A program made the translations under genes and the position numbers. A stretch of 64,000 bases of DNA from an uncultured bacterium (GTDB lineage: Bacteria; Omnitrophota; Omnitrophia; Omnitrophales; Abzuiibacteriaceae): the NCBI GenBank assembly GCA_964387845.1, contig CAYLXA010000006.1:135040-199039 (forward strand). The letters run 5' to 3'. Below, piece after piece: positions 8,394-64,000 of this stretch (the stretch's first letter is position 1; each line of letters starts with the position of its first letter). The notes under the pieces were generated by a model. That model searched no databases. It saw only the letters and a program-made list of their open reading frames with translations, and was not told the DNA's origin.

Positions 8394-8406
8394 GGAAAGG
8401 GGAAAC

Positions 8407-10790: not shown

Positions 10791-10830
10791 AACCGGCCAA
10801 CATTAATCTTCATGATTATTTGAGATCCTC

Positions 10831-11940: not shown

Positions 11941-11944
11941 CGCT

Positions 11945-13033: not shown

Positions 13034-13058
13034 GAGCAGTCAACCATGAGGGCGTCCT

Positions 13059-15366: not shown

Positions 15367-15396
15367 TGCAAACTCCACAACATTGACAGGGAATTC

Positions 15397-41879: not shown

Positions 41880-42275
41880 ATGTCAAAGGAGCGGCGAAGG
41901 TTTAAGCGTTTCGATGCTTATATGAGCGTTAAATGTGCGGTGCCGAGCAACGAAAATGCAAAAAATTATACGGTCGGTCTCACCAGAGATTTATCTCGTG
42001 ATGGAATATGTTTGAGTACCAGCCAGCCTCTACCGAGCGGTTCGACCTTGAATATTGAAATCGATATTCCGGATGATCCGCGGCCCATCTGCACTACGGG
42101 CAAAGTGATGTGGACTAAGAATGGAAATGCTGACGAGGGTAGTAATCACGGAATACGGTTCGTCAATATTGATCCTATCGATAAGTTTCGAGTTTTGGAT
42201 TACGCTTACAACCATTGGCTTGAAACCAAAGTCAATGATTATGCGGACCCGGAGCAAGTATCTGAATTAGGCTGA
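41880..42275 (+). CDS. PilZ domain protein
   Basis: 'RRRFKRF' and 'TRDLSRDGICL' PilZ boxes. GGGAGG RBS 6 nt before the ATG at 41880. Confidence 0.55.
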   Translation: MSKERRRFKRFDAYMSVKCAVPSNENAKNYTVGLTRDLSRDGICLSTSQPLPSGSTLNIEIDIPDDPRPICTTGKVMWTKNGNADEGSNHGIRFVNIDPIDKFRVLDYAYNHWLETKVNDYADPEQVSELG

Positions 42276-42431: not shown

Positions 42432-44507
42432 ATGGCACCCTTTTTTAGATTTGGCAAAGCCGCTCAGCCCAAGAAAGAATATGACATTACTCTTTTCCCG
42501 ATTTTCACGGGATTGAGCCAAGCTGAGATTAAGATGGTCGAGGAGAAAATCCGCCTCGTAGAGCTCAAGAAAGGCGAGTGCGCGTATCAGAAAGGCGAGG
42601 CGGCAAGCGCCTTTTACGTGATCTTAACCGGACGTTTTCAAATTCTTCGTGAAAACGGCGAGGTGATCAATCACTTACACCATGGTGATTATTTCGGCGA
42701 AACTTCAATCATCACGGATCATCCGCACAGCGCAACGGTTCAGGCGAAAAATGATTCGATTGTGCTCAAGATCGAAAAGAATGATTTTTTGTGGCTCTTA
42801 AAACGTATTCCGGCACTATCACTTCAAATCAGCCGCACGTTGGGGCACCGGTTAACTTCCAATATGGCCGGCGAAGAACTGGAAGGCCAATCCAAAATCC
42901 TCTCAATTTATCATGCGCAGCCGCGGATCGGTAATTCAACGTTCGCCGTCCGTTTGGCTGCATCGCTTGCATTTGAGATGAAGAAAAAAGTGATCGTGGT
43001 TGATTTGAGCCAGATTCATGCCGAAGGGCGGTCGGTTTCTCGAACCCGGCCGCATGCGCGTTCTTATTCTCTTGCGTCTCATGGTTTGCCAAGCGCGCAG
43101 TCGCTCGACCCGTTCATTCTTAAAAAAGACGGGCCTTTTGATTTTTTGAACGTCTCAAACCATGTGGAACTCGAAAAGGCCGAACGCCAGTTGGCACATT
43201 TATTGTCTTACTTGCTGTCACGCTATCACTACATCCTGATTGATTTACCAGCCGAATCATCCGGGCTCGGGCCTAAGGCTATTCAACAATCCGACTTGTT
43301 ATATTTTTTAGTGGATTCGGGCGAAAAGGAAACACAAAAGACTCAAAACATCATTTATCATTTCAAAGAGACATTCAGCCTCAACGATAACGACATCCGC
43401 TTGGTTCTGGTAGAAAGTAAGGATGCCAAAAGAATTTTTTCTTCCAATGTCGCGACTAAGCAATTTTATTCATATCCTGTTTTTGCGACACTGCCGCATG
43501 TTTCGGGAATGCCGTCGCCGAGCGAGACTAATTTAAAAGAGCCGCTTCCCGGCGATGCGGGAAAAGCTTATTCAAAGGTTATTCGGTTTTTAGCCCGTGA
43601 GGTAACCGGGACTTCGGTGGGGCTTGTGCTTGGAAGCGGCGCTGCGTTTGGTTTTGCACACATCGGTGTTTTGAAAGCGCTGGAGGAAGCAGGCATTGAA
43701 ATTGATATTTTAGGCGGATGCAGCATGGGCTCGTTGATCGGCGGTATGTGGGCGCTCGGCATCACAACGGATGAGCTGGTCAAAATTGCGACTGACCTGA
43801 ACCCGAAGAATGTTTTTTTTAAATTAATCGGGCTTCAGGACCTATCCATCGCCCACCGCGGGTTCTTTAAAGGCGACCAGGTGACGGAATTTTTGCGGGA
43901 ACACATCGGAAATGCGTCTTTTAGGGATGTGAAAGTTCCGATAAAAGTAATGGCAGCGGACTTGGCAAACGGTAATCCGGTGGTTTTAGATGAAGGGTCG
44001 CTCTTGGCGGCAATTCGCGCCAGTATTTCGATTCCCGGAATTTTCCGTCCGTTTCAGATCGGGAACCGGTATTTAATGGACGGCGGCGTGGTGGATCCGC
44101 TTCCGGTCCAGATGCTCCGGCGGTACGGCGCTAAAAAAGTAATTGCCGTGAATGTGCTGCAATCGCCGGATGACCATGCGAACCGGCTTGAAATCCTCCA
44201 GAGAAAAGATGAAAAGACAAATGAAATTATTCAAAATAAAAGCATCTTCGTCCGACATTTATATGAATACCGAAAAGACTTTATGGATAAACAAACGGCC
44301 AATATCTTCAACGTGGTCATGAAGGCCATTCAATTTATGGAGTTTGAAATGGCGGAAAATTCCGAACTGCACGCCGATGTGGTTCTGCGGCCGATCGTGA
44401 CGGATGCGCACTGGGCCGAGTTTTATCACGCGGAAAAATTTATCCGCAGGGGCGAAGACGAAACCTTGAAGGCGATGGATGAAATTAAGCGGATGATGAG
44501 CGAGTAA
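42432..44507 (+). CDS. cyclic nucleotide-binding domain / patatin-like phospholipase (NTE-like)
   Basis: An N-terminal cNMP-binding fold ('GDYFGETS') and a C-terminal patatin domain with oxyanion loop 'LGSGAAFGFAHIG', serine 'GCSMGS' and 'DGGVVDPLP' (Asp of the dyad). Confidence 0.75.
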   Translation: MAPFFRFGKAAQPKKEYDITLFPIFTGLSQAEIKMVEEKIRLVELKKGECAYQKGEAASAFYVILTGRFQILRENGEVINHLHHGDYFGETSIITDHPHSATVQAKNDSIVLKIEKNDFLWLLKRIPALSLQISRTLGHRLTSNMAGEELEGQSKILSIYHAQPRIGNSTFAVRLAASLAFEMKKKVIVVDLSQIHAEGRSVSRTRPHARSYSLASHGLPSAQSLDPFILKKDGPFDFLNVSNHVELEKAERQLAHLLSYLLSRYHYILIDLPAESSGLGPKAIQQSDLLYFLVDSGEKETQKTQNIIYHFKETFSLNDNDIRLVLVESKDAKRIFSSNVATKQFYSYPVFATLPHVSGMPSPSETNLKEPLPGDAGKAYSKVIRFLAREVTGTSVGLVLGSGAAFGFAHIGVLKALEEAGIEIDILGGCSMGSLIGGMWALGITTDELVKIATDLNPKNVFFKLIGLQDLSIAHRGFFKGDQVTEFLREHIGNASFRDVKVPIKVMAADLANGNPVVLDEGSLLAAIRASISIPGIFRPFQIGNRYLMDGGVVDPLPVQMLRRYGAKKVIAVNVLQSPDDHANRLEILQRKDEKTNEIIQNKSIFVRHLYEYRKDFMDKQTANIFNVVMKAIQFMEFEMAENSELHADVVLRPIVTDAHWAEFYHAEKFIRRGEDETLKAMDEIKRMMSE

Positions 44508-51928: not shown

Positions 51929-52001
51929 GGGCCAGTAGCTCAGCTGGGAGAGCGCTACATTCGCATTGTAGAGGTCACGAGTTCAATCCTCGTCTGGTCC
52001 A
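51929..52001 (+). tRNA. tRNA-Ala (anticodon CGC)
   Basis: Manual cloverleaf: acceptor GGGCCAG/CTGGTCC with a G3:U70 pair, D-arm GCTC-AGCTGGGA-GAGC, anticodon stem CTACA/TGTAG, loop TTCGCAT, T-arm ACGAG-TTCAATC-CTCGT, discriminator A. CCA is not encoded. Confidence 0.85.
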
Positions 52002-52008
52002 AATTTCT

Positions 52009-52292
52009 GAAGCCGGTAGCTCAGCCCTCACGCTACCATGAATATTCACGTATTATTTTAATGAAGCGTGAGGGTAGTCCTGATTTCTAATGAATAAATG
52101 ATTGTCATTTATTGATGAAAATCAGGGCAGCTGGGAGAGCGCTACATTCGTATTGTAGAGGTCAGGACTCATTTTCATTGAGGGATCCAGACGGTCAATA
52201 GGAAATGAGTTCAGCTCCTGAGCCTGATCAAGAATTCCTTAGTCGATTTTTACAGTAGCTCAGGGGCGGGGGTTCGGTCCCCCTTCGGTCCA
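52009..52292 (+). other. tRNA-like mosaic / pseudo-tRNA region with nested perfect hairpin insertions
   Basis: It contains a 5' tRNA fragment (GCCGGTAGCTCAG), a D-loop-to-variable-loop copy almost identical to the tRNA-Ala but with anticodon loop TTCGTAT, a third GTAGCTCAG copy, and a T-arm/3'-end-like GGGGGTTCGGTCCCCCTTCGGTCCA. Two inserts with perfect 8-10-bp inverted repeats interrupt it. Confidence 0.4.
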
Positions 52293-52422
52293 AAGTTAGT
52301 TTTACACCTAAAATTAGCCTCGAATTAATCTCACCTAACGTCTTAAGCTATCAGATAAAAGAGCCGAAACATTATCCTACAAGCTTGGAGTGTCTTTAAG
52401 CGGTTAAACGTAGGATAAAATT

Positions 52423-53295
52423 ATGAGCTACTACCGCATTTTAGGTTTTGATAAAGAGCCTTTTTCCACAAGCCCGGACCCTAACTTTTTTTATCTTACC
52501 CGCGAGCACGAAACGGCGCTGACCAATGTTTTAATCGAGCTCAGATTGCGCCGAGGTTTGTCGGTTGTTTTGGGGGATGTTGGAACCGGCAAAACAAGTC
52601 TTTCCCGGAAATTAGTTCAGTGCTTGCGTGAGCGGAGCGACTTTATATTTCATATTGTTTTAGATCCCTGCTTCGAGAATGAGCATCTTTTCTTAACCTC
52701 CTTAATTCGCAATTTGGGAATCGTTGTCGATCAGCCGCATGAACAAGACCGAACTCTGCTTCGGCACACGGTTTTAGACTTAAAAGAGGCTTTAGAAAAG
52801 TACCTTTATCAGAAGTGCGTTATCGAAAATAAAACAGTGGTTTTGATTGTCGACGAGGCGCAGAAGCTGAGCGAATCCTCGATGGAAATGCTGCGTGTTA
52901 TACTTAATTACGAAACCAACGAAAACAAATTGTTGCAGCTCGTCCTTTTGGGCCAAATGGAGCTTCATGCAAAAATCGTGAATATCCCGAATTTTTGCGA
53001 CCGGATTAGTTTTAAATATTCGCTCAACCCGCTGGATTTCAAGGAAACGAAAGACATGATCCGCTACCGGATCAAGCAAGCAGGCTACAACGCGCCGTCC
53101 CATCTTTTTTTAGATGATGCAATTCAGCTGATTCACAAAGTGTCGCGCGGATATCCGAGAAAAATCACGATGCTGTGCCATCGCTCGCTCAAGAAGCTTG
53201 TGATGCAAAGTAAATGGTCGGTCGACGAAAATTTGGTGCGCGAAATCGTGAATGAAGATATTCATTCCGGCTGGCTTGCGCCGACGCTGCATTAA
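52423..53295 (+). CDS. ExeA/GspA/MshM-like AAA+ ATPase (secretin-associated)
   Basis: N-terminal 'YRILGFDKEPFSTSPDPNFFYLTREHETAL' and Walker A 'GDVGTGKTSL', Walker B 'LIVDEAQ'. It lacks a C-terminal peptidoglycan-binding extension. Confidence 0.7.
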   Translation: MSYYRILGFDKEPFSTSPDPNFFYLTREHETALTNVLIELRLRRGLSVVLGDVGTGKTSLSRKLVQCLRERSDFIFHIVLDPCFENEHLFLTSLIRNLGIVVDQPHEQDRTLLRHTVLDLKEALEKYLYQKCVIENKTVVLIVDEAQKLSESSMEMLRVILNYETNENKLLQLVLLGQMELHAKIVNIPNFCDRISFKYSLNPLDFKETKDMIRYRIKQAGYNAPSHLFLDDAIQLIHKVSRGYPRKITMLCHRSLKKLVMQSKWSVDENLVREIVNEDIHSGWLAPTLH

Positions 53296-53312
53296 GGATT
53301 TTAAAATCCGAT

Positions 53313-54032
53313 ATGGGAGACGAAACACCGGAACAGCAGCTTTTAAAGCTGATTGAGCAGCCGCAAGCGAGCGGTGCTCAGCCGGCGGGGGATTCTAAAG
53401 ATCCCAAAGCGGATACAGCGGCAGCGGCAAAAGCAAAGAAAGGTCTCAATTTTAAGAGCCTGCTGACACCAAGCGGATGGAAAGGCGTTTTGTCCTATGC
53501 AAAGGAACAAGGCGCAACGCTGGCAAAGCAAAAGCCGGAAGTTTACAGTCTCCGAAGTTTTAACCGTTTTTTTCGGATCGCGCTCGGCGCCGGCGGAATA
53601 GTAATGTTTTGTTACATTGCTTATGCGGCTTACGTCATGAATAGTGAGTTTCACGAGCTGTCTGATTCGACACAAAAGGAAATGGCTGATCTGCCCATGT
53701 CGGGCGGGCGAATGTTGGATCCGAATTTTTTTGAGGATATTGCGAAACGGAATATTTTTGCACCGATGGAAAAAAAGCTGGAGCCCGAGCTTGCGCTTGA
53801 GTCTGGAGTTAGCAAAGCGGCTCTCGTTGAAATGGCAAAAGATATCAAGCTAACGGGGATTTCCGTAAATCCAACGGATGAGAGCCGCACATTTTGCATG
53901 ATCGAAGACCTTAAGAAAAACACGACAAGTTTTTTAAAAGTTGGCGACGGAATCGCCGGATTTACGATTAGCAAAATCGGTCCTGACAGCGTTGAGCTCA
54001 AATACCAAAAGGAAGCGATCGAGCTGAGATAA
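53313..54032 (+). CDS. hypothetical bitopic membrane protein, possible PilP/GspC-like secretin partner
   Basis: One TM (FFRIALGAGGIVMFCYIAYAAYVM) and a C-terminal beta-rich '...SFLKVGDGIAGFTISKIGPDSVELKY' resembling secretin-binding HR/PilP domains. It overlaps the secretin start (ATAATGA). Confidence 0.3.
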   Translation: MGDETPEQQLLKLIEQPQASGAQPAGDSKDPKADTAAAAKAKKGLNFKSLLTPSGWKGVLSYAKEQGATLAKQKPEVYSLRSFNRFFRIALGAGGIVMFCYIAYAAYVMNSEFHELSDSTQKEMADLPMSGGRMLDPNFFEDIAKRNIFAPMEKKLEPELALESGVSKAALVEMAKDIKLTGISVNPTDESRTFCMIEDLKKNTTSFLKVGDGIAGFTISKIGPDSVELKYQKEAIELR

Positions 54033-55687
54033 TGAAAAGAACAATTTCACAAAAAAAGCACTTACTCATCATTGTATTAACGGTTATCGTTTCGGCAATG
54101 CCCGTGAGCTCATTCAGCGCAACGTTACCGGCTCCGGAAACAGCACAAGTCGCAGCGCAGCCGTCAGAGAAAGCCGAGCCATTACAGATTGCCTCAGCCG
54201 CATCGACAACCGGGCTTGATAAAACTATTTTTCTAGATCTTCGCGATATCAACGTTATCGATATTCTTAAGTTTTTAGCTTTGGAAGGGGATTTGAATAT
54301 TGTGACGAGCAAAAACGTCCAGGGCCGATCAACGCTGCTTTTGCGTGACGTAAAAATCCGCGATGCGCTCGACATTATTGTTTTATCAAACCAGCTTGCC
54401 TACGACATGAGGAACAGCATTATTTACGTTATGACCGAGCAGGAGTATTTGCAGCTTTACGGAAAAAATTTTAGCGATCAGAAAAAAATCAAAACTCGGG
54501 TTTTGACGTACGCCAAGCCCAGTCACGCGCTTGCGGCGCTGCAATCAATTCAAAGCGCTTTGGGAAAAGTGATCATTGACGAGGAAACCGGCTCGGTGAT
54601 CATGATCGATACTACCGAAAAATTATCCGAAATGGATGCTCTGTTGGATAAGCTGGAAACCAAAGTTGAGACCAAATCCATCACACTTCAATATGCGATG
54701 GCGAAAGATATCGAAACGCAGCTGAAGCCGAAATTAGATGTCAAATCCGTTGGTTCGGTTATTGCGGATGAACGGTCCAATCAAGTGACCATCACAGCGT
54801 ATCCGGGCCGGATGGAAGAAATTGTGGAGCTTGTGCAGTCGTTGGACGCTAAAACCAAAGCGGTTTTGGTGGATGTTCGCATTCTGCAGTTAACCATTAA
54901 TCCGAAGTACGATGCCGGAATCGAGTGGGAAAGAGTATTTACGAACAGTAAGAACGAACTTTTCAAAAGCCTCGATTTCAACCATGCATTTCCGATCGCT
55001 TCAACAGTTTCATCCAGCGCGGCTCTGGGCTCGGTCGGCCAATACACGATCGGAAACTTAACGACGGATGAATTTACGGCCGAATTAAGATTTCTAAAGC
55101 AAATCGAGCGCACCAACGTTGTTGCCAGTCCGCGGATGATGATTCTGGATCGCCAAGAAGCGAAGATTAATATCGGTGACCGGATTCCGTATGTTATTAC
55201 CACAACAACCGGAACGGGAACGAACGTGTCGGTTAGTGAGGACATTCAATTTATTGACGTTGGCCTTAATCTTGTTGTGACGCCGGTTATTAATGACGAG
55301 GGGTATGTGACGATGAAAATTCGTCCGGAAATTTCAAGCCGCACGGGAACGCTTACAACACCCACAGATAACGCAATCCCGATTGTTAATACAACGTTTA
55401 TCGAAACCAATATCGTTGTAAAGGATGGAGTCACCATTATCTTGGGCGGCCTCAGGCGGGATGAATTAACCGAATCAAACAAAGGCGTCCCGTATTTGAT
55501 GGATGTGCCCTTCATCGGCAACGCGTTTAAAAGCAGGGCTGAAACAACGCGAAAAACGGAGATTGTTATTTTCATCACGCCCAAAATTGTCAGCGGAACT
55601 GAAACAATGGCGTGGCAAAATCCGCCTTTTAAACCGGCAAAGTTAGAGATGATTCCACAGGCGCAGAAAAACAAAAAAATATCATGA
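54032..55687 (+). CDS. secretin (GspD/PilQ/MshL family outer-membrane channel)
   Basis: Signal peptide, N-domains, and a C-terminal secretin core ('VVASPRMMILDRQEAKINIGDRIPY', 'VVTPVINDEGYVTMKIRPEIS', 'IILGGL...VPYLMDVPFIGNAF...EIVIFITPKIV'). Confidence 0.8.
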   Translation: MKRTISQKKHLLIIVLTVIVSAMPVSSFSATLPAPETAQVAAQPSEKAEPLQIASAASTTGLDKTIFLDLRDINVIDILKFLALEGDLNIVTSKNVQGRSTLLLRDVKIRDALDIIVLSNQLAYDMRNSIIYVMTEQEYLQLYGKNFSDQKKIKTRVLTYAKPSHALAALQSIQSALGKVIIDEETGSVIMIDTTEKLSEMDALLDKLETKVETKSITLQYAMAKDIETQLKPKLDVKSVGSVIADERSNQVTITAYPGRMEEIVELVQSLDAKTKAVLVDVRILQLTINPKYDAGIEWERVFTNSKNELFKSLDFNHAFPIASTVSSSAALGSVGQYTIGNLTTDEFTAELRFLKQIERTNVVASPRMMILDRQEAKINIGDRIPYVITTTTGTGTNVSVSEDIQFIDVGLNLVVTPVINDEGYVTMKIRPEISSRTGTLTTPTDNAIPIVNTTFIETNIVVKDGVTIILGGLRRDELTESNKGVPYLMDVPFIGNAFKSRAETTRKTEIVIFITPKIVSGTETMAWQNPPFKPAKLEMIPQAQKNKKIS

Positions 55688-56691
55688 AAGAAAATAATAC
55701 CAAGTTTTTAATACAAGCACTCACCAGAATGGCTCTGATTTTATTAATCGCTACAGGCGCGGCCCGTCCCGGCTCGGCATTTTGGCCGTTTGATACCGGT
55801 GAAGAAAAACAAAGCGAAGAGTTTAGTGCTCCGACAGCCTCACTTCCGACACCCGAACAGAAAAGGGAAGAATCGCTCAAGATTGATACGATTCTAAGCA
55901 CGCTAAACGAGTCCCTGGAAGAAAACAAAAAACTCCGGACCGATGCGGAAAACGCGCAAGAGCAGCTGAACCGATCCTCAATCGAGAACAACGTACTTCG
56001 AAGCCAATTGCGCACATTGCAAGCAGAAGCCGATTCGTACAAAACCGAGCTCACCAAGCACGCAGAAGAAACAAAAAAAAACATTCAAAAGCTTGAGCAG
56101 GAAGTTGGTCGTCTTCAAATTGAGGCCAAAAAAGCAGAAGAGATGAAGGAATTTGCCGAAGAAAGCATGGCCTACACCGAAGCGGAAAATCAAAAGGTGA
56201 GAAAGCTGCTTGAACAATCTATTCTTGAAAGCGAACGGGACACATACGTGAAGCTGATTTCGGAGTCGGAGATAAAGGCGAATCGAGCTGCGGAAAAGCT
56301 GATGACAGCAAAGCGCCAGAATGAACGCATGAGATCCGAACTGGCTTCGGCTTATTATAATTTGGGCAATATGCTGGCCGGGTCGGCGCAATATCGGAGC
56401 GCTTTAACGCAATACAAAAAGGCGCTCAAACTTAACCCAAATGATGCGTGGACGCATTACAATTCGGCCATTATTTATGATTATTATTTAAACAATAAAG
56501 AAAAATCGCTCGCACACTACAAGAAATATTTAAGCTTAGAACCTGCTGAAAAAGAGATCAATAAAGTGCGCGAGCGCGTTTTAGAAATGGAATTACTGAA
56601 TCCTGTCACGCCCGGCCAGCCGCTCAAGTCTGATTTTGACAAATATCAAAAGGATTTGAACAAGCCCTACGTCATCAAGGCAAACGGTTAA
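55684..56691 (+). CDS. secreted coiled-coil / TPR-repeat protein (MshN-like position)
   Basis: Signal peptide, a long E/K/Q-rich coiled coil, and C-terminal TPRs ('AYYNLGNMLAGSAQYRSALTQYKKALKLNPNDAWTHYNSAIIY'). ATGA overlap with the secretin gene. Confidence 0.5.
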   Translation: MKENNTKFLIQALTRMALILLIATGAARPGSAFWPFDTGEEKQSEEFSAPTASLPTPEQKREESLKIDTILSTLNESLEENKKLRTDAENAQEQLNRSSIENNVLRSQLRTLQAEADSYKTELTKHAEETKKNIQKLEQEVGRLQIEAKKAEEMKEFAEESMAYTEAENQKVRKLLEQSILESERDTYVKLISESEIKANRAAEKLMTAKRQNERMRSELASAYYNLGNMLAGSAQYRSALTQYKKALKLNPNDAWTHYNSAIIYDYYLNNKEKSLAHYKKYLSLEPAEKEINKVRERVLEMELLNPVTPGQPLKSDFDKYQKDLNKPYVIKANG

Positions 56692-56772
56692 TTTTTTTAA
56701 CCCACACCCGGCCTTACACCTAAAGCCACATTCTAAAGCATTTTTTTAAGATATTTTTATCTGATAAAAAAA

Positions 56773-56801
56773 TTGCATTGAATTTCAGGTTATGATACTA
56801 T
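56773..56801 (+). promoter_or_regulatory. putative sigma70-type promoter (TTGCAT-17 nt-TACTAT) upstream of the FGE-like paralog pair
   Basis: A hexamer match with 17-nt spacing in the 247-bp AT-rich gap. A GNRA hairpin CCTGCC-GAAA-GGCGGG (56884-56899) lies between the putative promoter and the ATG at 56939. Confidence 0.3.
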
Positions 56802-56938
56802 TTTTTTGTTGTCCCATAACCCTAAATTAAACTGCTGAATTAACATATGGCGATTGGGAAATTTCTGACTTGAAAAAGGCAAACCTGCCGAAAGGCGGGG
56901 ACGCAAAACCGAAGTTCTAAATCTCATCAAGGAGAGAC

Positions 56939-58726
56939 ATGAAGGCTGGGTTACCAAGCTGCTTGCGCAATGCGCACACCATGCGTATTGACGCTCAAAT
57001 AAATTGCAAATTTTTCTTCTATGCGATCAGTCTTTTCGTCTTCCTTTTTGGCGCGTCTCCTAAAACCGTTTGGGCCAACAACCTCAGCATTTCAAACGTC
57101 ACACTGACAAGCCAGGATTCCGCAAACGACACCGTCGCGATTCAGTTTGATATTTCGTGGGACAATTCATGGCGGAACCAGACCAATTGGGATGCGGTTT
57201 GGATATTTATTAAATACACAACAGAAACCTCAACGCCGCAGCGATGGTTTCATGCAATTCTACGCAAGACTTCCGCAGCAGCATCCCAGACAAATCCTTC
57301 CGGATATTCTCAAGGAAGCGGAACTGGTCTGGACATTCTTTTGCCGGATGATAATACGGGTGCGGATACCGGTGTTTATGGCGCGTTTCTTTACCGCTCA
57401 GAGATCGGAACTGGCAGCGTTTCAACCACCAGCGTGAAGCTTTTGTGGGATTATGGCGAAAACGGCTTGGCAGATACCGCGACACCGATTGTGCAAGTAT
57501 TCGGCATCGAAATGGTTTATGTTCCACAGGCGTATTTTGTAGCCGGCGATTCCACTAACTCAGCCAGTAATCCGCCGGGCGGATTTGTGGACGGCGGAAG
57601 CGGTACCTATGCTGCTTACACAGTGAGCAGCGAAACTCAGATTGGGTTAGGATCTCCGACGACTGGATGGATTCAATCGCGCTCCGGCATGTCGCCCGCG
57701 GATGATTTTTCAAGCGCTGCTCACAAAAATCTCCCGATTGCATATCCAAAAGGCTACAACGCGTTTTACATGATGAAATATGAACTGACACAAGGTCAAT
57801 ACGCCGAATTTTTAAACACGCTGGAACGTAAAGGCCAAGTCAACTTAGTCGGTGCTACCGTGTCGGCTGATACGATTGCAAATTATTATGTCATGAGCGC
57901 CGAATCTCAATTATCAAGAAGCAACCGAAATACGATTACAGCTCCTTCGTTTGGAAACGGCAGTATCAATCCTATTGCGTTTTCGGTCTCAAGGCCTTAC
58001 CGGGCTATGAACTATCTTGCTTGGATGGATTTGGCGGCCTATGCCGATTGGGCTGCTTTGCGCCCGATGTCTGAGTTGGAGTATGAGAAGGCGGCGCGCG
58101 GTTTTTATGGCTATCAAGCTCCATTACCTGCTTTAAGTTTGGGATTTGCTTGGGGAACGACCGATTTGGTAATTGCAACGACTCCGAATGCATCGGAAGA
58201 TAGTGGAACGGAAGGAATCAACGGAAATGCAGCTTACGGTAATTATACCTACGGCGCTGGCGATGGTTCAACGGGTCCGCTCCGTGTGGGCATTTTCGCA
58301 AGCGGAACCGCGACGGCTACTCGCCCGCTGAGCGGTGCCGGCTTTTACGGCGCGATGGAGCTCTCGGGGAATGTCGCAGAACAGGTTGCGTCCATAACAG
58401 ATACGCTGGCTGCCAACATCCGCGGCGGCAGGGATTTTGACGGATCACATGGCAACGGCACAGTGGTGACTGGTTCTGCGTGTTCTTGGGTCGGGCGGGC
58501 CGACGTGAAGCAATGGCCGGGGTCGTTAACGACATTTTCAGATGGTAACTGCAGCGGCGGCGGAACGGTTCGGCTCATCTATTCACGCGGCGCTATCCGG
58601 CGCGGTGGCTCGTGGAGCAGTGTATCAGCGCGGCTGCAGCTTTCAGACCGCCTAGATTCAGGAAGCGTGCCGAGTTTTACGCGTTCCAGCGCGCATGGCG
58701 GCCGGTTGGTGAGGACTGCGCCATGA
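56939..58726 (+). CDS. secreted protein with N-terminal conserved domain and C-terminal non-catalytic FGE-sulfatase-like (SUMF1/GldJ-type) domain, paralog 1
   Basis: AAGGAGAGA RBS and a signal peptide. 'ELTQGQYAEFLNT', 'RPYRAMNYLAWMDLAAYADWAALRPMSELEYEKAARG' and 'GGRLVRTAP' follow the FGE-sulfatase fold pattern, but no Cys pair is present. Confidence 0.6.
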   Translation: MKAGLPSCLRNAHTMRIDAQINCKFFFYAISLFVFLFGASPKTVWANNLSISNVTLTSQDSANDTVAIQFDISWDNSWRNQTNWDAVWIFIKYTTETSTPQRWFHAILRKTSAAASQTNPSGYSQGSGTGLDILLPDDNTGADTGVYGAFLYRSEIGTGSVSTTSVKLLWDYGENGLADTATPIVQVFGIEMVYVPQAYFVAGDSTNSASNPPGGFVDGGSGTYAAYTVSSETQIGLGSPTTGWIQSRSGMSPADDFSSAAHKNLPIAYPKGYNAFYMMKYELTQGQYAEFLNTLERKGQVNLVGATVSADTIANYYVMSAESQLSRSNRNTITAPSFGNGSINPIAFSVSRPYRAMNYLAWMDLAAYADWAALRPMSELEYEKAARGFYGYQAPLPALSLGFAWGTTDLVIATTPNASEDSGTEGINGNAAYGNYTYGAGDGSTGPLRVGIFASGTATATRPLSGAGFYGAMELSGNVAEQVASITDTLAANIRGGRDFDGSHGNGTVVTGSACSWVGRADVKQWPGSLTTFSDGNCSGGGTVRLIYSRGAIRRGGSWSSVSARLQLSDRLDSGSVPSFTRSSAHGGRLVRTAP

Positions 58727-60408
58727 TGAGGCAAATATTACTGCCGTTTTCTATGTTTGTTTTTTTAGGTTTTCAGGCGTCCTACCTGCACGCTAACAAT
58801 TTGAACATTTCAAACGCTAAAATTGCAAGCCAGGATACTTCGAATGACACCTTGACCATCCAATTCGATATCAGTTGGGAAAACTCATGGCGCGATGGAG
58901 AAAATTTTGACGCAGTTTGGGTTTTTATAAAATACAGCACGCAGGTGGATCATTGGATTTCCACTGAGCAGCCGACTGGGTGGCAGCACGCAGTTTTAAA
59001 ATCATCAGGAACAAATCCAAGCGGATATTCTCAAGGATCCGGAACTGCGCTGGACATTGTGGTGCCGAGTGACCGGCGCGGCTTTTTTCTGCAGCGCTCC
59101 AGTACCGGCGCGGTAGGTACGGTGAACACCACAAGTATTAAAGTTTTATGGAATTACGCAGAAAATTCTGTGTCGGACACAGAAGCCAATTCTGCTTACA
59201 CCCATATCAAAGTATTTGGAATTGAAATGGTTTATATTCCGCAGGCCGGTTTTTACACTGGAGATGGTAGTGATGGTCTTAATGGGGAATTTGAGTTCGG
59301 GGGCTCGACGGCGTCAAGGCCGGCGTCGGTCAATAGTGAGCAAGAGGTTGTGTTTGGAACGGGTACTTTTTCGAATCAATGGTATTACAACACTGATTTG
59401 TCAGGGGATGACTACACATCCGGGACTATCTTCACATTAGCTGAAAGTTTCCCAAAAGGCTTTCAGGCGTTTTACGCCATGAAATACGAAATTACGCAGG
59501 GCCAGTACGTCGAATTCTTAAACACATTGCAGAGAAGCGCTCAAAAGAGCCGGGTGGCAAGTGATCCTGTTAATGCAATTCCGAATTATTATGTGATGAG
59601 CGCCGAATCTTTATTGACTCGCAGTGACCGTAACACGATTACAGCGCCTTCTACGGGCAATGGCTCCTATCATCCTGTCAAGTTTTACGCCCAAAGGCCT
59701 TACCGCGCGATGAATTATATGAGCTGGATGGACCTGGCGGCATTCGCTGATTGGGCGGCTCTTCGGCCGATGTCGGAGCTCGAGTATGAAAAAATAGCAC
59801 GGGGCCCATTGTATCCGGTGGATGGCGAGTATTCTTGGGGAAGTACGGTCGTTTCGTTTGTGGATATAAACGGGGTTGGTGATGAGCTAGGCACAGAAAA
59901 CTTGGATGTGGGCAAATCACCAACGCCTGCCGCCAATTACAGCAACACGGCTTTTGCAGGGGGCGACACCGGCACAGGCCCGTGGCGTGTGGGGATTGTG
60001 AGCGGCGCCCCTCCTGAGCTTACTCTTTATGACCGCGCCAACAATGGAATGGGTTACTACGGGAATGCCGATTTAACCGGCAATGTCTGGGAGCGGGCCG
60101 TCACGGTTGGGAATTCGGCGGGGCGGAATTTTGCGGGTACGCATGGAGATGGAAAGCTTATATATAGCAGCAGCGATACAACCTACATTAATTATTTCGG
60201 AAACGCGACCAACTTGGATTGGCCCGGCATGGATACGACCGACATCAATAGGGGTATTACGGGTGCGCATGGAAGCGGGTTTCGAGGTGGCGCTTGGACC
60301 ACAACGTCGCTCAATTCATTACAAGTTTCAAATCGCGCAGAAGCCGCGCGGGTAGATACCACGCGCGGTTCGTCGTATGGTGGGCGCTTGGTCAGGACAG
60401 CGCCGTAA
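58723..60408 (+). CDS. secreted protein with non-catalytic FGE-sulfatase-like domain, paralog 2
   Basis: ATGATGA overlap with paralog 1. It shows the same architecture ('ANNLNISNAKIASQDTSNDTLTIQFDISWENSWR', '...RPMSELEYEKIARG', '...GGRLVRTAP'). Confidence 0.6.
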   Translation: MMRQILLPFSMFVFLGFQASYLHANNLNISNAKIASQDTSNDTLTIQFDISWENSWRDGENFDAVWVFIKYSTQVDHWISTEQPTGWQHAVLKSSGTNPSGYSQGSGTALDIVVPSDRRGFFLQRSSTGAVGTVNTTSIKVLWNYAENSVSDTEANSAYTHIKVFGIEMVYIPQAGFYTGDGSDGLNGEFEFGGSTASRPASVNSEQEVVFGTGTFSNQWYYNTDLSGDDYTSGTIFTLAESFPKGFQAFYAMKYEITQGQYVEFLNTLQRSAQKSRVASDPVNAIPNYYVMSAESLLTRSDRNTITAPSTGNGSYHPVKFYAQRPYRAMNYMSWMDLAAFADWAALRPMSELEYEKIARGPLYPVDGEYSWGSTVVSFVDINGVGDELGTENLDVGKSPTPAANYSNTAFAGGDTGTGPWRVGIVSGAPPELTLYDRANNGMGYYGNADLTGNVWERAVTVGNSAGRNFAGTHGDGKLIYSSSDTTYINYFGNATNLDWPGMDTTDINRGITGAHGSGFRGGAWTTTSLNSLQVSNRAEAARVDTTRGSSYGGRLVRTAP

Positions 60409-60615
60409 ATTTTTTTAGAAAACCCCGGCCTTTAGCTTTGGAGAGGGTTGAAGGCAGGATGGAAAGTAAAAAAATCGTAACCTCTGGCCCCAGTCCGGAG
60501 GAAGCGAAAGCAAGACCCAATTGACACCGGCTTTGGAGAGGAGGCGTTTAAAAACGCTTTGAGTAGTCGTCCCAGTTTAAAAAGGAAAATTATAGGTCGT
60601 CCCAATAACGCCTGG

Positions 60616-63600
60616 TTGAAGAGATTAGCTTGGCTGCTGATCTTGACACAGGCACTTTCTGCGCCTTATCAAGCCCGTCTTGAAGCGGCTTACTATGGCG
60701 GCGGCAGCTACTCAGGCGATGATGTTGTCCAGGTCACCCAAGCGCAGTATATGGGCGGTTCCTATGCGGGTTATTCATCTGCAACCAGCTCTGCCACATC
60801 CGTCGGCGCCAACAAACTGGCTTTTGCCATTACGCCTCCAACCAGCTCGGTCAATCAAGCCTTCACGGCAACTGTTCAGGTCCAAGATGCCAGTGGCGCC
60901 GTAGTTTCCACAGCAGAGAATTCTGTAACCGTAGCGCTATCAAGCAATCCGACGAGCGCCACCTTGGGTGGTACTTTGACCGCCCCCGCTTCCTCCGGTA
61001 CGGCAACCTTCAATACGCTTTACATTAATCAACCCGGCACATACACATTATCGGCCATGGCAAGCGGCCTCACATCGGCAACTTCATCGTCATTTAGTAT
61101 TGTTTCGGGAGAGTTTAGGGTTCAGGGCTCGCTCGGTTACGCTGCGTCGAGCAATGCATACTATGTCAATTGCTGGATTGAAAACATTTCAGGCACGATT
61201 CTGACGGGCCCGACCTCTTGCGCAGCGGTAGTTTATGCGCCCGATGGATCAACCCACGCCACGTTGACGACCGTTAATTTTGGAAGCCCGGATTCTGACG
61301 GTGTTTTTCGTACAACCGCATGGGATCCGGGCGCTAATTATTTGGATGCCTATACAGCCCGGTTGACTGTCGTCTATAACAGCGCAAGCTACAGTGCCGT
61401 TATTGGTTTAAATCCAGCGCTCAACCGAGGCATTGATGAAATTTACACATCAACCTCAGGAATCAGTGATATCGCAAGCGATGTCACGGATATCGCAGCC
61501 GCAGTCGGCGTTGGTCAAGCGCAGACGGTTTGGCAGAAGGCCGATAGCATCCTCACCTCCATCAGCAAAGCCAACTGGGATGATTTGAAAGTTCTTACCG
61601 AAGCCGGAATTAATTGGGCGGACGTCAATAACCAGAGCCGGGCCGGGATCAACTGGGACGACCTGCGCTCTCTGACCAAGGCCGGCATCAACTGGAACGA
61701 CATCATGAAGTTCAGCCTCTCGGGAATCAATTGGGATGACTTGGTGAAACTCACCAAAGCCGGAATCAACTGGAACGATTTCGGCACGCTCACGAAATCG
61801 GGCGTTAACTGGGACGACCTCAATAGAATGACCAAGGCCGGCATCAACTGGACGGACATTGCCGTATTGAGTTTGAAGGGTGTTAACTGGGCGGACATCT
61901 ATACTTTGTCACGTTCCGGCGTAAACTGGGATGATATCAAAGCGCTCTCCAAAGCAGGTGTCAACTGGTCTGACATCGGCCGTCTCTCCAAATCAGGCGT
62001 TAACTGGGACGATTTTAGCAAGCTTTCTAAGGCCGGTATCAACTGGTCCGACATCGGGCGTTTGTCAAAGTCAGGCGTTAACTGGGATGATTTAAAGGTG
62101 TTGAGCAAGGCAGGTGTTTCGTGGGCCTCGCTCGGTTATGAAGTGACTTGCGGCGCTGCGATTGATACGGATGGGGTCAGCTACATTTATACGGGTCTAC
62201 GGAGGAACGGGGCGCCGGCGCCGTTCACGACGGACTGCGAGTCGATGGCAGTTGCGGATGATATTCAAATTTCAGTACTGAGTGCTGATGCAGGTTCTAC
62301 GGTAGACACGATTGACGATAACACGGGTACGGGGATTGACAGTTCGACGTGCCGGTATGAAACAGTCAATCAATATATCCAAACTCATTTAACGGAAGAT
62401 TACGTGATTAGTTGTTATGTTGTGTTGAATGGAATTGGATATGAAGGCCTGACCACTTATAGTCCGCAAGCCCATTATGTCGCCACTGCAGTGAATTGGA
62501 CAGATATCGGCCTTTTGGCGGATGCCGGCATCAATTGGGCGGACATCGGTCGGCTCTCCAAGTCGGGCGTCAACTGGGATGATTTGAAAGTATTTTCAAA
62601 GGCGGGTGTCAATTGGTCCGACATCGGCCGTCTCTCTAAGTCGGGGGTCAATTGGGACGATATTGGCAAACTTTCCGCCGCCGGCATCAACTGGTCTGAC
62701 ATCGGCCGCCTCTCCAAATCCGGCGTCAATTGGGACGATTTGCGTGCACTCACGAAAGCCGGGGTCAATTGGACCGATATAAAAGCACTGGCCGCGGCGG
62801 GCAATTATCGGTTTGGCGGATATTTTACATCGTTTAGCCATGTTTCGCCGTCGGCTACGGGCGGTACGTTTGCGGTTTATTTTGAGCGCAATGGATCGAT
62901 CGTGCCTCCGGCCAGTTGGTGTTCGGCAGCCACCTTCACGGTGACTAGCGGAAGCTGTGGCTCGTTTGGCTTATTCCCTTACGATTGCTCGAATGCGTGT
63001 TGCTATGATGTGGATTCGTGTAGCTCACAGCCTACCAGCACGGAAGTATCCTTAAGCTATGGCGGTCGAAGCTATTCTGGTCAAGTACGGTTTGATGTGC
63101 TGGGAACTGCAGGGGTCAACTGGAATGATATACAGGCGTTCTCCAAATCCGGTATTAACTGGACGGATATCGGCCGCCTTTCCAAATCCGGTGTCAATTG
63201 GGATGACCTGAAAGCGCTTTCCAAAACCGGCATTAATTGGACGGATATCGGCCGCCTCTCCAAATCCGGCGTCAATTGGGATGATTTTGGGAAATTATCA
63301 AAAGCGGGAATTAATTGGAGCGATCTCGGACGTCTCTCGAAATCCGGTATTAATTGGGATGATTTGCAAGTTCTTACAAAGTCAGCCATTAACTGGACGG
63401 ATCTGGCGGTGATGACAAAAGCTGGGAGTAACTGGATGGACAATGTCAACTGGATGAATTTAGCCGCTCTTACAAAATCCGGGGTCAATTGGACCGACAT
63501 CAAAATCATGAGCGATACCAATATTAACTGGGATGGCATGAAGGCGCTTTCAGAAGGCGGGGTCAATTGGACGGATATCGGTGTATTGACAAAATCAGCG

Positions 63601-64000
63601 ATTAACTGGGATGATTTAAAAACGCTCTCTAAAACAGGTGTCAATTGGGACGACTTAAAGTCTCTCTCTCGGGCCGGCGTTAACTGGACGGACATCGGAA
63701 AAATGAGTAAATCCGGCGTCAATTGGGATGATCTCAATAAACTCTCCAAGGCCGGGGTGAATTGGCAAGGCATTGAGACCTTGTCAAAAACCGGCATCAA
63801 TTGGACGGACTTAGGGGCTCTGACAAAAGCTGGCATTAACTGGAATGATCTTCTCTCACTCAGTAAAACAGGCGTTAATTGGGATGATCTCTCAAGGCTC
63901 TCCAAAGCCGGTGTCAATTGGGATGACTTGAATAAACTCAGCAAGGCCGGTGTTAATTGGGATGATTTGAATAAACTCTCTAAGGCCGGGGTCAATTGGC
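60616..64000 (+). CDS. giant secreted repeat protein (3'-truncated by the window), with 11-residue G(V/I)NW(S/D/T)D(I/L)xxLSK(S/A) tandem repeats
   Basis: My own frame-1 translation is open from 60481 to the window end, which is why it is absent from the ORF track. Inferred TTG start 60616 gives 'MKRLAWLLILTQALSA|PYQA' (signal-peptide-like). There is a ~320-aa N-terminal Ser/Thr/Ala-rich region, then three repeat arrays separated by Cys-containing inserts. The start codon is uncertain. Confidence 0.6.
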   Translation, partial: MKRLAWLLILTQALSAPYQARLEAAYYGGGSYSGDDVVQVTQAQYMGGSYAGYSSATSSATSVGANKLAFAITPPTSSVNQAFTATVQVQDASGAVVSTAENSVTVALSSNPTSATLGGTLTAPASSGTATFNTLYINQPGTYTLSAMASGLTSATSSSFSIVSGEFRVQGSLGYAASSNAYYVNCWIENISGTILTGPTSCAAVVYAPDGSTHATLTTVNFGSPDSDGVFRTTAWDPGANYLDAYTARLTVVYNSASYSAVIGLNPALNRGIDEIYTSTSGISDIASDVTDIAAAVGVGQAQTVWQKADSILTSISKANWDDLKVLTEAGINWADVNNQSRAGINWDDLRSLTKAGINWNDIMKFSLSGINWDDLVKLTKAGINWNDFGTLTKSGVNWDDLNRMTKAGINWTDIAVLSLKGVNWADIYTLSRSGVNWDDIKALSKAGVNWSDIGRLSKSGVNWDDFSKLSKAGINWSDIGRLSKSGVNWDDLKVLSKAGVSWASLGYEVTCGAAIDTDGVSYIYTGLRRNGAPAPFTTDCESMAVADDIQISVLSADAGSTVDTIDDNTGTGIDSSTCRYETVNQYIQTHLTEDYVISCYVVLNGIGYEGLTTYSPQAHYVATAVNWTDIGLLADAGINWADIGRLSKSGVNWDDLKVFSKAGVNWSDIGRLSKSGVNWDDIGKLSAAGINWSDIGRLSKSGVNWDDLRALTKAGVNWTDIKALAAAGNYRFGGYFTSFSHVSPSATGGTFAVYFERNGSIVPPASWCSAATFTVTSGSCGSFGLFPYDCSNACCYDVDSCSSQPTSTEVSLSYGGRSYSGQVRFDVLGTAGVNWNDIQAFSKSGINWTDIGRLSKSGVNWDDLKALSKTGINWTDIGRLSKSGVNWDDFGKLSKAGINWSDLGRLSKSGINWDDLQVLTKSAINWTDLAVMTKAGSNWMDNVNWMNLAALTKSGVNWTDIKIMSDTNINWDGMKALSEGGVNWTDIGVLTKSAINWDDLKTLSKTGVNWDDLKSLSRAGVNWTDIGKMSKSGVNWDDLNKLSKAGVNWQGIETLSKTGINWTDLGALTKAGINWNDLLSLSKTGVNWDDLSRLSKAGVNWDDLNKLSKAGVNWDDLNKLSKAGVNW
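61567..62125 (+). repeat. in-frame 33-bp tandem repeat array 1 (~17 units) inside the giant protein gene
   Basis: Units such as GGCGTTAACTGGGACGATTTTAGCAAGCTTTCTAAGGCC translate to G-V/I-N-W-x-D-I/L-x-x-L-S/T-K-A/S. Confidence 0.8.
62488..62805 (+). repeat. in-frame 33-bp tandem repeat array 2 (~9-10 units)
   Basis: The same unit, e.g. 'AGINWADIGRLSKSGVNWDDLKVFSKAGVNWSDIGRLSKS'. Confidence 0.8.
63101..64000 (+). repeat. in-frame 33-bp tandem repeat array 3 (>=27 units, continues past the window)
   Basis: 'GVNWNDIQAFSKSGINWTDIGRLSKSGVNWDDLKALSKTGINWTDIGRLSKS...' up to the window end. Confidence 0.8.

Follow-up and report, generated by a model that had tools for sequence, protein, structure and literature searches.

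A secretin gene block beside a riboswitch-led FGE/giant-protein operon of Omnitrophota, probably the detached outer-membrane part of a T2SS

The locus described here, part of a 64-kb stretch of DNA that was analysed as a whole (the window), raises the question of which machinery its secretin gene serves and what the conspicuous genes behind it have to do with that machinery. Four genes on the + strand follow each other in the order ATPase, bitopic HR protein, secretin and TPR protein (together, the module); two FGE-like paralogs and the gene of a giant repeat protein come next. These genes and their order, as given in the original prediction, are borne out by Pfam and NCBIfam matches and by frame checks. 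The overlapping stops and starts described there, TAATG, ATGA and ATGATGA, are real at this locus, yet at three junctions the genes are spaced: 17 nt separate the ATPase gene from the HR gene, 247 nt the TPR gene from FGE1, and 150 nt FGE2 from the gene of the giant protein. The promoter-like site TTGCAT/TACTAT did not hold up, as it falls short of agreement in four of six hexamer positions and such sites are no commoner in the region than in shuffled sequences. On its 5′ side the locus is bounded by a tRNA-Ala(cgc) gene (51929..52001, +; ARAGORN, Rfam) 421 nt ahead of the module, and degenerate pieces of a further tRNA-Ala copy are found at 52012-52297 (repeats D1-D3).

The first gene (52423..53295, +) encodes a cytoplasmic AAA+ ATPase of 290 residues and of the ExeA/GspA/MshM class (AAA_22, 69 bits; TIGR03015, 169.7 bits, under the NCBIfam cut-off of 324.5). 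Its Walker A (GDVGTGKT) and Walker B (VLIVDE) motifs are intact, and it carries neither a transmembrane segment nor a peptidoglycan-binding domain. The following gene (53313..54032, +) codes for a bitopic inner-membrane protein of 239 residues with a weak T2SSC match (23 bits). It is composed of a conserved N-terminal cytoplasmic peptide (M-A-D-x-D-x-S-L-T-P-E-Q-x-L-L-K-L-I-E-E-P), an extended hydrophobic helix that is taken for the transmembrane segment, and a C-terminal HR domain of the GspC/GspB/PilP type. The secretin (54032..55687, +; 551 residues; Pfam Secretin 165 bits, Secretin_N 68 bits) has a strongly conserved domain at its N-terminus, followed by Secretin_N repeats and the secretin core (family alignment A1); the N-terminal domain is read as N0-like, in keeping with faint to weak STN matches in two homologues (L011 and L128). 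Against NCBIfam it scores 245.9 bits with PilQ and 217.9 bits with GspD, both under cut-off, and its sequence matches in the PDB are PilQ and GspD with PilQ on top. The fourth protein (55684..56691, +; Pfam TPR_1/2/11) is a coiled-coil/TPR accessory protein. Its N-terminal hydrophobic segment has no lipobox Cys and precedes a coiled coil of ~150 residues, and two TPRs occupy 221-292; its PDB matches are generic TPR proteins only.

Genes for the core of a T2SS or type IV pilus had been reported as locally absent, and none was found in the window: Pfam showed none among 48 larger ORFs of the 64-kb window, a set excluding most ORFs at 6981-17128, phmmer returned no match when the complete Omnitrophota GspE-M set was compared with all six-frame ORFs of the window, and a motif scan of the window gave no GspE/PilB Walker-A motif. 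The further view of an architecture unlike a T2SS finds no support in other Omnitrophota. In L128, L054 and L048 the ATPase-HR-secretin block forms the last three genes of a complete gspEFGHIJKLM operon. On the 671-kb JGI contig of L128 the order is GspE(MshEN)-F-G-H-I-J-K-L(PilM_2+PilN)-M(PilO)-MerR-ATPase-HR protein-secretin, and L054 and L048 share this arrangement; the L048 GspF and ATPase carry the NCBI name Candidatus Omnitrophota. Window-type and T2SS-embedded versions have the N-terminal motif in common and are 52% identical in the ATPase (window against L128), 36% in the secretin and 33% over about 100 residues in the HR protein. Given the 36% identity, the window-type secretin may be a paralog that serves another function. 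The TPR gene, fourth in every window-type locus, is missing from the embedded version. In about 40 window-type loci no gspE-M genes were found within 10 kb, with the exception of L031, a locus with riboswitch and FGE-like genes in which a GspL-like gene (E 9e-9 in phmmer with the L054 GspL), a 169-aa gene, GspE (MshEN, 433 bits) and tRNA-Asp precede the module. The block inside gsp operons and the L031 neighbours thus confine the term orphan to the local neighbourhood.

Downstream of the module, FGE-fold paralog 1 (56939..58726, +; 595 residues; PF03781, 32.7 bits; family alignment A3) comprises a predicted signal peptide, a β-sandwich and an FGE/C-type-lectin-like domain, and paralog 2 (58723..60408, +; 561 residues) an FGE-sulfatase domain (31 bits). 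Both were correctly anticipated to be non-catalytic, since the family alignment contains no invariant Cys and FGE2 no Cys at all. The giant protein (60559..64000, +; TTG start; >1147 residues) runs past the window end. It carries a predicted signal peptide, the conserved motif A-A-Y-Y-G-G-G-S-Y-S-G and an Ig-like domain, and contains arrays of a 13-residue (39-nt) repeat, S-K-[AS]-G-[IV]-N-W-x-D-[IL], alternating with non-repeat domains of about 50-125 residues. Across the loci, the proteins encoded after the FGE-like genes share the N-terminus (conserved in 24 of 27 listed downstream proteins) and the 13-residue GVNW repeats; relatives were called at 7153 (L004) and 4166 (L011) residues. Because contigs break in the repeats, the giant C-termini lie beyond the sequence read, and they may carry a T1SS, autotransporter or other export signal.

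The 247-nt gap between the module and the FGE-like genes holds an element beyond the earlier gene-level description, a c-di-GMP-I (GEMM-I) riboswitch aptamer (56868..56958, +; RF01051, 76.4 bits, E 3e-13, with an Rfam gathering score of 35). Within its second hairpin and 3′ strand lie the SD sequence (GGAGAG), the FGE1 start codon AUG at 56939 and FGE1 codons 2-7. The same register is found in all 14 loci that score above the Rfam gathering score, the window and 13 others, with the AUG 19 nt before the aptamer 3′ end in 14/14 and compensatory changes in 7 of the 19 aptamer pairs. In ~40% of the species, the window's included, the riboswitch opens the FGE/giant operon. Since the ribosome-binding site lies inside the aptamer, binding of c-di-GMP most likely blocks translation initiation of FGE1; judged from this geometry, the switch would be OFF in the bound state. 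The single co-transcript suggested originally for module and downstream genes finds no support, as the gap and its riboswitch imply that the two are at least regulated separately.

The association of the secretin module with the FGE-like and repeat genes, also part of the original prediction, recurs across Omnitrophota despite differing upstream genes. Among 36 species-representative loci, all named ones of which are Omnitrophota, the module genes keep one order in 36/36 wherever the contig covers them. FGE-like genes directly follow the module in 25 of the 29 loci with at least 900 bp downstream; in the other four, the next gene is a long ORF (three loci) or unrelated (L014). Two of three look-ups seeded with FGE-like proteins landed directly after a module; the exceptions to the linkage are one FGE-like gene (L010) and one module (L014) that each stand without the partner. 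The module proteins co-evolve (r 0.73-0.93), and the correlation of secretin with FGE (r 0.51) was reached in none of 2000 Mantel permutations.

Based on these data we consider it probable (roughly 60%) that the module is the outer-membrane/assembly half of an Omnitrophota T2SS, split from gspE-M and fixed beside a probable cargo operon. The inner-membrane part would be encoded elsewhere in the genome, a working T2SS being assumed. The cytoplasmic GspA/ExeA-type ATPase might dock on the bitopic protein at its conserved N-terminal peptide, and the periplasmic HR domain of the bitopic protein would bind the secretin N0 domain like GspC and GspB; the secretin would form the outer-membrane pore, and the exported coiled-coil/TPR protein might help in its assembly or stability. 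The FGE-fold proteins (one or two, Sec-exported and non-catalytic) and the giant Ig-domain/13-residue-repeat protein are most likely substrates or surface-displayed partners of the secretin, with c-di-GMP probably stopping synthesis of the first at the operon-leading riboswitch. As the module stands beside the giant operon in most related species, it offers a possible export route for giant proteins. However, known T2SS substrates are folded and far smaller than 4,000-7,000 residues, which counts against the giant as cargo, and we know of no precedent for a protein of that size crossing a secretin.

The local isolation of the module, with no GspE/F or pilin gene found in the 64-kb window or, L031 apart, within 10 kb of it in about 40 loci, might also suggest, in line with the original prediction, that ATPase, HR protein, secretin and TPR protein work on their own as an outer-membrane exporter or anchor of the FGE-like and giant proteins, without pseudopilus or GspE/F motor and comparable to the secretin/ATPase pair of filamentous phages. 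The extra TPR protein, the tight cargo linkage and a dedicated ATPase with intact Walker motifs fit such a device. We nevertheless regard it as unlikely, given the same three-gene block within canonical T2SS operons of the phylum and the GspL-like and GspE genes adjoining the L031 module. Moreover, ATPases of the ExeA/GspA class are secretin-assembly factors and not translocation motors (see PMC9239104), and no energy coupling for outer-membrane transport can be proposed. Equally improbable in our view is that the module supplies the PilQ/MshL-type pore for a type IVa or MSHA-like pilus whose other genes lie elsewhere, the giant operon being co-located only by a joint role in attachment and its products exported by another route. 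The top rank of PilQ in NCBIfam and the PDB, the resemblance of ATPase, secretin and TPR protein to MshM, MshL and MshN, the MshEN domains in the GspE relatives and the reported common occurrence of T4aP genes in most Omnitrophota classes (PMC10066038) speak for it. All pilus-secretin models, however, remain under cut-off (PilQ 245.9 against 284.35 bits, MshL 159.7 against 250.2), an AMIN domain was not detected, pilMNOP and mshIJK genes are absent at the locus, and the complete homologous operons carry T2SS-specific GspG (115 bits), GspJ and GspK.

Still less probable is that module and giant operon are a genomic island that landed beside tRNA genes, so that their adjacency reflects history and not a pathway. 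The variable upstream neighbourhoods are compatible with this idea, as are the tRNAs directly ahead of the module, which differ between lineages (Ala-cgc, Pro-tgg, Val-tac/Asp-gtc, Val-cac), and the tRNA-Ala fragments between tRNA and module in the window. But no integrase or transposase genes were noticed among the annotated genes around the loci, the components co-evolve, and the module persists with three kinds of downstream partners: GVNW giants with FGE-like proteins, a GVNW giant alone, and a second long-protein family. That the arrangement is conserved at the depth of a phylum speaks for selection acting on the linkage of module and giant operon.

A close counterpart of the proposed T2SS half is the outer-membrane GspC-GspD pair combined with GspA/GspB (ExeA/ExeB). 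In these systems, as here, a secretin is accompanied by a bitopic protein with a GspC/GspB-fold HR domain, which in GspB binds the secretin N0 and acts with GspA (PMC9239104), and the gene immediately upstream codes for an ExeA-class AAA+ ATPase; homologous blocks also stand inside complete gsp operons of the same phylum. Unlike ExeA/GspA, the window ATPase is devoid of a transmembrane segment and a peptidoglycan-binding domain, a single HR protein appears to replace both GspB and GspC, the secretin is under the GspD equivalog cut-off, there is an extra coiled-coil/TPR protein, and the block stands apart from gspE-M. The MSHA genes mshL-mshM-mshN likewise unite a secretin, an ExeA-like ATPase without transmembrane segment and a TPR protein. 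Their order is L-M-N, whereas here it is ATPase-HR protein-secretin-TPR, and besides the low MshL score, mshI/J/K and pilin genes are absent. Physical separation of T2SS genes is also known. According to the account in PMC6567927, which cites Michel 2007, XphA/XqhA of Pseudomonas aeruginosa is an orphan GspC/GspD pair encoded away from the remaining T2SS, separately regulated, and forming a hybrid T2SS with Xcp; the module differs in its additional ATPase and TPR protein, its conservation across many species representatives of a phylum and its tie to specific neighbours. The Lsp T2SS genes of Legionella are split over five loci, lspC always lies beside a Sel1 (TPR-like) repeat protein gene, and in some species a tRNA gene immediately precedes the secretin gene (PMC6617341), all of which recalls our locus; the Legionella substrates, however, are chromosome-scattered and of ordinary size, while the putative cargo here is adjacent and giant.

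The adhesin GbpA of Vibrio cholerae, which is secreted via the T2SS, offers a regulatory parallel. Its gene gbpA is controlled by the class I c-di-GMP riboswitch Vc1 (PMC4744006), as such a riboswitch precedes an FGE-fold gene here; unlike in Vc1, the aptamer itself encloses SD, AUG and six codons and has no separate expression platform, and its targets are the genes of FGE-fold proteins and possibly that of the giant protein. Finally, a T2SS/Tad-like locus upstream of Omnitrophota giant genes was described by West-Roberts et al. 2023 (bioRxiv 10.1101/2023.11.21.568195). That locus has over 10 subunits, gspD/E/F, rcpC and a PPIase among them, against four genes without gspE/F here, and its giants possess many transmembrane segments and SecA-like domains, in contrast to the FGE-fold proteins, predicted Sec signal peptide and 13-residue repeats of the present locus. 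Both, however, belong to the same phylum and place secretion genes next to very long genes thought to serve attachment.

Six genes lie on the forward strand between window positions 52423 and 60408, and a seventh follows directly. The first encodes a P-loop ATPase of 290 residues (52423–53295) which matches AAA_22 at 69 bits and carries intact Walker A (GDVGTGKT) and Walker B (VLIVDE) motifs. It is followed by a bitopic protein of 239 residues with an HR domain (53313–54032), whose match to T2SSC is weak (23 bits), by a secretin of 551 residues (54032–55687) with Secretin (PF00263, 165 bits) and Secretin_N (PF03958, 68 bits) domains, and by a TPR protein of 335 residues (55684–56691) in which a hydrophobic N-terminal segment precedes a long coiled coil and two TPRs. 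Next to this four-gene module come two paralogs with an FGE-sulfatase domain, FGE1 (56939–58726) and FGE2 (58723–60408), and then a giant repeat protein which starts at a TTG codon at 60559, extends past the window end at 64000 and is visible over 1147 residues. The genes, their order and the overlaps TAATG, ATGA and ATGATGA were confirmed in the sequence as originally described; gaps of 17, 247 and 150 nt follow the genes of the ATPase, the TPR protein and FGE2, respectively, the last one lying in front of the giant gene. A promoter and terminator scan yielded no more sites than were obtained in shuffles. The repeat unit of the giant protein consists of 13 residues, S-K-[AS]-G-[IV]-N-W-x-D-[IL], and its arrays are split by non-repeat domains of ca. 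50–125 residues. The G+C content is 0.52 at 58001–62000, where FGE2 ends and the giant gene begins, compared to 0.45–0.49 in the adjoining upstream region.

A secretin with both Secretin and Secretin_N domains, encoded beside a GspC-type HR-domain protein, is as expected for a type II secretion system (T2SS), and an ExeA-class P-loop ATPase with intact Walker motifs next to a bitopic partner with a GspB-like HR domain corresponds to the GspA/GspB (ExeA/ExeB) pair. The transmembrane segment and periplasmic peptidoglycan-binding domain of ExeA/GspA are lacking in the ATPase, on which Pfam returned only P-loop NTPase families and in which no hydrophobic segment was evident. The top NCBIfam scores of the secretin are those for PilQ (245.9 bits, cut-off 284.35) and the GspD equivalog TIGR02517 (217.9 bits, cut-off 351.35), both under cut-off, as is MshL (159.7 bits, cut-off 250.2), and neighbours of the pilMNOP or mshIJK type are present neither in the annotated loci nor in the window. 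Two other names for the ATPase were rejected. TIGR03015, the XrtA/PEP-CTERM ATPase, scores 169.7 bits (E 8e-50) against a cut-off of 324.5, and the constant neighbours of the gene are secretion genes; the NCBI name “transposase” for a family member in a related locus (L048, 16542–17369, MBM3248462.1) presumably stems from the AAA_22 domain shared with TniB-like proteins, and the neighbours again place the gene in a secretion locus.

The proposal that the FGE-like proteins are non-catalytic agrees with an alignment of 56 sequences (A3), in which the active-site Cys pair of catalytic FGE is not conserved and no Cys is invariant; FGE2 is devoid of any Cys. Their suggested resemblance to GldJ/GldK of the T9SS was not borne out, as a GldJ/GldK/PorK lipoprotein match combined with other T9SS genes was not found. 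Matches of the giant protein to Lysostaphin_N, Ntox33 and RecG_dom3_C, all under cut-off for the window protein, were taken as repeat artefacts, and likewise the one segment of a related giant (locus L004) that exceeds the Lysostaphin_N cut-off (125.6 versus 60).

The absence of core T2SS or type IV pilus genes beside the module holds within the 64-kb window by Pfam, phmmer and motif scan, and is confirmed as a fact about the local neighbourhood. Neither phmmer with the full Omnitrophota set of GspE–M against all six-frame window ORFs nor a scan of the window for the GspE/PilB Walker A motif gave a match. The Pfam-scanned window ORFs, which leave aside most ORFs at 6981–17128, have housekeeping functions and include MurE and FtsA of a cell-wall/division cluster, glycine cleavage, UvrD, a BatD/TPR group, tryptophan synthase, LepA, signal peptidase I and beta-oxidation enzymes.

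In other Omnitrophota, GspE, GspF, the pseudopilins G–K and GspL/M are contiguous with a homologous block (loci L128, L054 and L048, partly L031). When L031 GspE served as query, a metagenome scan based on generic GspE motifs was too unspecific to place gspE–M in window-type genomes. It returned GspE loci at 38–51% identity, among them L048 and L054 with strong homologues of the window ATPase (314 and 295 bits) and, in L054, also a partial homologue of the secretin (346 bits); these led on to L128. According to Pfam, the ATPase gene of L054 is preceded by GspE (MshEN and T2SSE domains), GspF and GspG (115 bits), and also, on the same side, by three more genes of pseudopilin type, of which one matches T2SSJ, by GspK, a PilM_2+PilN fusion resembling GspL and a PilO/GspM-like gene; a T2SSC-like HR protein is encoded 3′ of the ATPase. 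L128, a contig of 671 kb, provides the complete order E-F-G-H-I-J-K-L-M-MerR-ATPase-HR protein-secretin, after which amidase and queuosine genes follow and TPR, FGE-like and giant genes are absent. Within this complete T2SS operon, gspM and the ATPase gene are thus separated by a MerR-family gene (9771–10004, 77 residues). The GspF and ATPase of L048 are named Candidatus Omnitrophota by NCBI. Compared with the window proteins, the ATPase is 52% identical, the secretin 36% and, over ca. 100 residues, the HR protein 33%; its N-terminal motif is recognizably common to the window-type and T2SS-embedded versions. L031 is itself arranged as in the window, with riboswitch (see below) and FGE-like genes, and carries directly 5′ of a tRNA-Asp gene and the module a GspL-like ORF, an ORF of 169 residues and GspE with an MshEN domain. 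The GspL-like ORF (446 residues) was recognized by phmmer with Omnitrophota GspL queries (E 9e-9 versus GspL of L054); Pfam confirms neither this ORF nor the one of 169 residues as GspL or GspM, and phmmer supports only the former. Given the homologous block within the gsp operons of L128 and L054 and the GspL-like and GspE neighbours in L031, the original prediction of an architecture other than that of a T2SS is unsupported. The module block is deduced from these homologies to be T2SS-derived and detached from gspE–M in the lineage of the window.

Relatives of the secretin with 54–77% identity form more than 100 clusters, and all named ones belong to Candidatus Omnitrophota. The FGE-like family comprises 1366 matches at E <= 1e-5, the named ones among the 120 listed being all from Omnitrophota. 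Five secretin relatives with 55–77% identity were inspected, and all five show the order ATPase-HR protein-secretin-TPR protein, a gap and a long gene, FGE-like genes being present in some of them only; the upstream neighbourhoods differ, save in the closest relative (L002), which has the upstream genes of the window. When FGE-like proteins served as starting point, two of three turned out to be encoded between the module, which they adjoin, and a giant ORF; the remaining one is a lone FGE-like gene amid housekeeping genes. A scan of one genome per species gave 36 loci, all named ones again from Omnitrophota, with a constant module order wherever the contig covers it. Among 29 loci that extend 900 bp or more beyond the TPR gene, 25 have one or two FGE-like genes next to it; in three of the remaining four a long ORF follows directly, and in L014 unrelated genes on the opposite strand. 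Nearly all listed downstream proteins (24 of 27, including all encoded after FGE-like genes) share an N-terminus, consisting of a predicted signal peptide and a motif of the type A-A-I-Y-T-G-G-S-G-D-G, as well as an Ig-like domain and GVNW repeats. The called lengths of giant relatives reach 7153 (L004) and 4166 (L011) residues, and the former contains 141 copies of the 13-residue repeat in its first 2391 residues. The pairwise distances of the four module proteins are correlated across 22 loci (r 0.73–0.93), and those of secretin and FGE-like proteins at r 0.51, a value reached in none of 2000 Mantel permutations. The predicted linkage of the module to FGE-like and repeat-protein genes is thus sustained by co-occurrence across species loci and by co-evolution.

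Long proteins lacking the GVNW repeats, the conserved N-terminus and FGE-like genes are found in three loci (L007, 13088–16168; L022, from 12853; L025, from 4024). None has a Pfam match, and those of L007 and L022 look alike by eye in an N-terminal (I/L)HIQ..H.N..AQ stretch. These three loci suggest that more than one kind of downstream partner is possible for the module. The N-terminal 330 residues of the giant protein were discarded as a query because a widespread tandem Ig-like domain (8097 matches) swamped the search and rendered it uninformative for the family. Contigs nearly always break inside the giant repeat genes, in the window (60559–64000) and in almost all relatives, and L044 contains a run of N there; public annotations therefore likely under-count and truncate the giant family.

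Upstream of the module, at 51929–52297, a tRNA-Ala(cgc) gene is followed by pieces of a broken second tRNA-Ala copy (52012–52025; 52128–52167, 95% identical over 40 nt; 52251–52297), which may be the scar of a recombination or integration. Same-strand tRNA genes are located 0.1–1.2 kb 5′ of the module in L002, L007, L013, L019, L022, L023, L026, L030, L031, L035 and L047 and vary by lineage (Ala-cgc; Pro-tgg; Val-tac plus Asp-gtc; Val-cac). This adjacency looks more frequent than chance; an integrase gene was not noticed near these sites.

The 247-nt gap that follows the TPR gene harbours a c-di-GMP-I riboswitch aptamer (56868–56958), which scores 76.4 bits with the Rfam model RF01051 (gathering score 35) and did not figure in the original prediction. 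An aptamer above the gathering score is present at the same position in 13 further loci (49.8–85.9 bits). One of these is L002; the others, L013, L016, L017, L018, L020, L023, L026, L030, L031, L036, L038 and L047, account for 12 among the 30 species representatives covered at this place. L004, L005, L007, L009, L011 and others gave no such match. The AUG of the first FGE-like gene is placed exactly 19 nt upstream of the aptamer 3′ end in each of the 14 loci. The second hairpin holds the Shine-Dalgarno sequence (GGAGGAG-like) in its loop and distal stem, and codons 2–7 form the 3′ strand of this hairpin and the closing helix; compensatory changes occur in 7 of the 19 predicted pairs. The location of the first codons inside the aptamer explains the N-terminus M-T-[AV]-W-L-P-S conserved in most loci. 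As an expression platform separate from the aptamer is absent, ligand binding should occlude the ribosome-binding site and, on the basis of this geometry, the riboswitch should act as an OFF switch.

MshEN domains, which bind c-di-GMP, are found on the related GspE proteins of L031, L054 and L128. The Pfam family name points in the same direction. The system is tied to c-di-GMP at two levels, the riboswitch on the downstream operon and MshEN on related GspE ATPases, so that c-di-GMP may act on machine and cargo alike. PilZ, DUF520 and HD-GYP-type domains are tied to c-di-GMP signalling in other bacteria. The window contains two PilZ-domain genes (40642–41004 and 41835–42275), which flank a DUF520 gene (41007–41510), whose product we take to be of the YajQ family, and are adjoined by the gene of a cNMP-binding/AAA_31/patatin protein (42432–44507); an HD_5/GAF protein of HD-GYP type is encoded at 2288–3955.

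Altogether, the interpretation initially put forward retains its linkage to the cargo genes and loses its new, non-T2SS machine. The locus is best described as a split-off T2SS outer-membrane module, consisting of a GspA-like ATPase, a GspC/B-like connector, a GspD-class secretin and a TPR accessory protein. It has become fixed next to an operon, often under a c-di-GMP riboswitch, that encodes FGE-fold proteins and a giant repeat adhesin. Known T2SS substrates are far smaller than the Omnitrophota giants, and the C-termini of the latter lie beyond the available contigs, so that their status as cargo is derived from synteny and co-evolution. Going further, we consider it possible, with a probability of only about one in five, that modules of the window type have specialised, as secretin paralogs, in serving one class of giant Sec-exported repeat adhesins. 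The adhesin fibre would then be threaded through the secretin, while its conserved N-terminal module, i.e. the Tyr/Gly-rich motif after the predicted signal peptide and the Ig-like domain, would be retained in the periplasm. The FGE-fold proteins might form a PorK-like periplasmic collar holding this N-terminal module, and c-di-GMP would gate the display through translation.

The Omnitrophota, bacteria of ultra-small size that probably live as predators or parasites, are noted for extremely long genes. To the question of how their giant proteins exit the cell the locus offers a concrete, testable link, as a conserved secretin module is positioned directly 5′ of one giant-repeat family in most module-bearing species representatives. 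The riboswitch is of compact design, as its aptamer takes in both the ribosome-binding site and the six initial codons, so that RNA structure constrains the protein N-terminus. Full-text literature searches (Omnitrophota with secretin; riboswitch with Omnitrophica) gave no description of a window-type locus or of the riboswitch. If the dedicated-paralog proposal were true, the system would represent a secretin-based counterpart of LapA/LapE retention and a new mode of giant-adhesin display. A secretin that really passed or anchored proteins of 4,000–7,000 residues would stretch the capability supposed for secretins.

The locus reported 5′ of Omnitrophota giants (West-Roberts 2023) comprises more than 10 genes including gspE/F, rcpC and a PPIase gene, whereas the window module has four genes and none of gspE, gspF, rcpC and PPIase. 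The giants of that study are multi-TM proteins with SecA-like domains; by Pfam, no SecA-like domain is present in the 1147 visible residues of the window protein. A survey found most components of type IVa pili to be common in most Omnitrophota classes (PMC10066038), which fits inner-membrane parts encoded elsewhere without proving it. The separation of the module from gspE–M would also be in line with known cases. In Legionella, the lsp genes are distributed over five loci, lspC has a Sel1 repeat protein gene as its neighbour, and some species carry a tRNA gene 5′ of lspD (PMC6617341). Together with XphA/XqhA of P. aeruginosa, an orphan GspCD pair (Michel 2007, as cited in PMC6567927), they provide precedents for scattered T2SS genes and orphan GspCD pairs.
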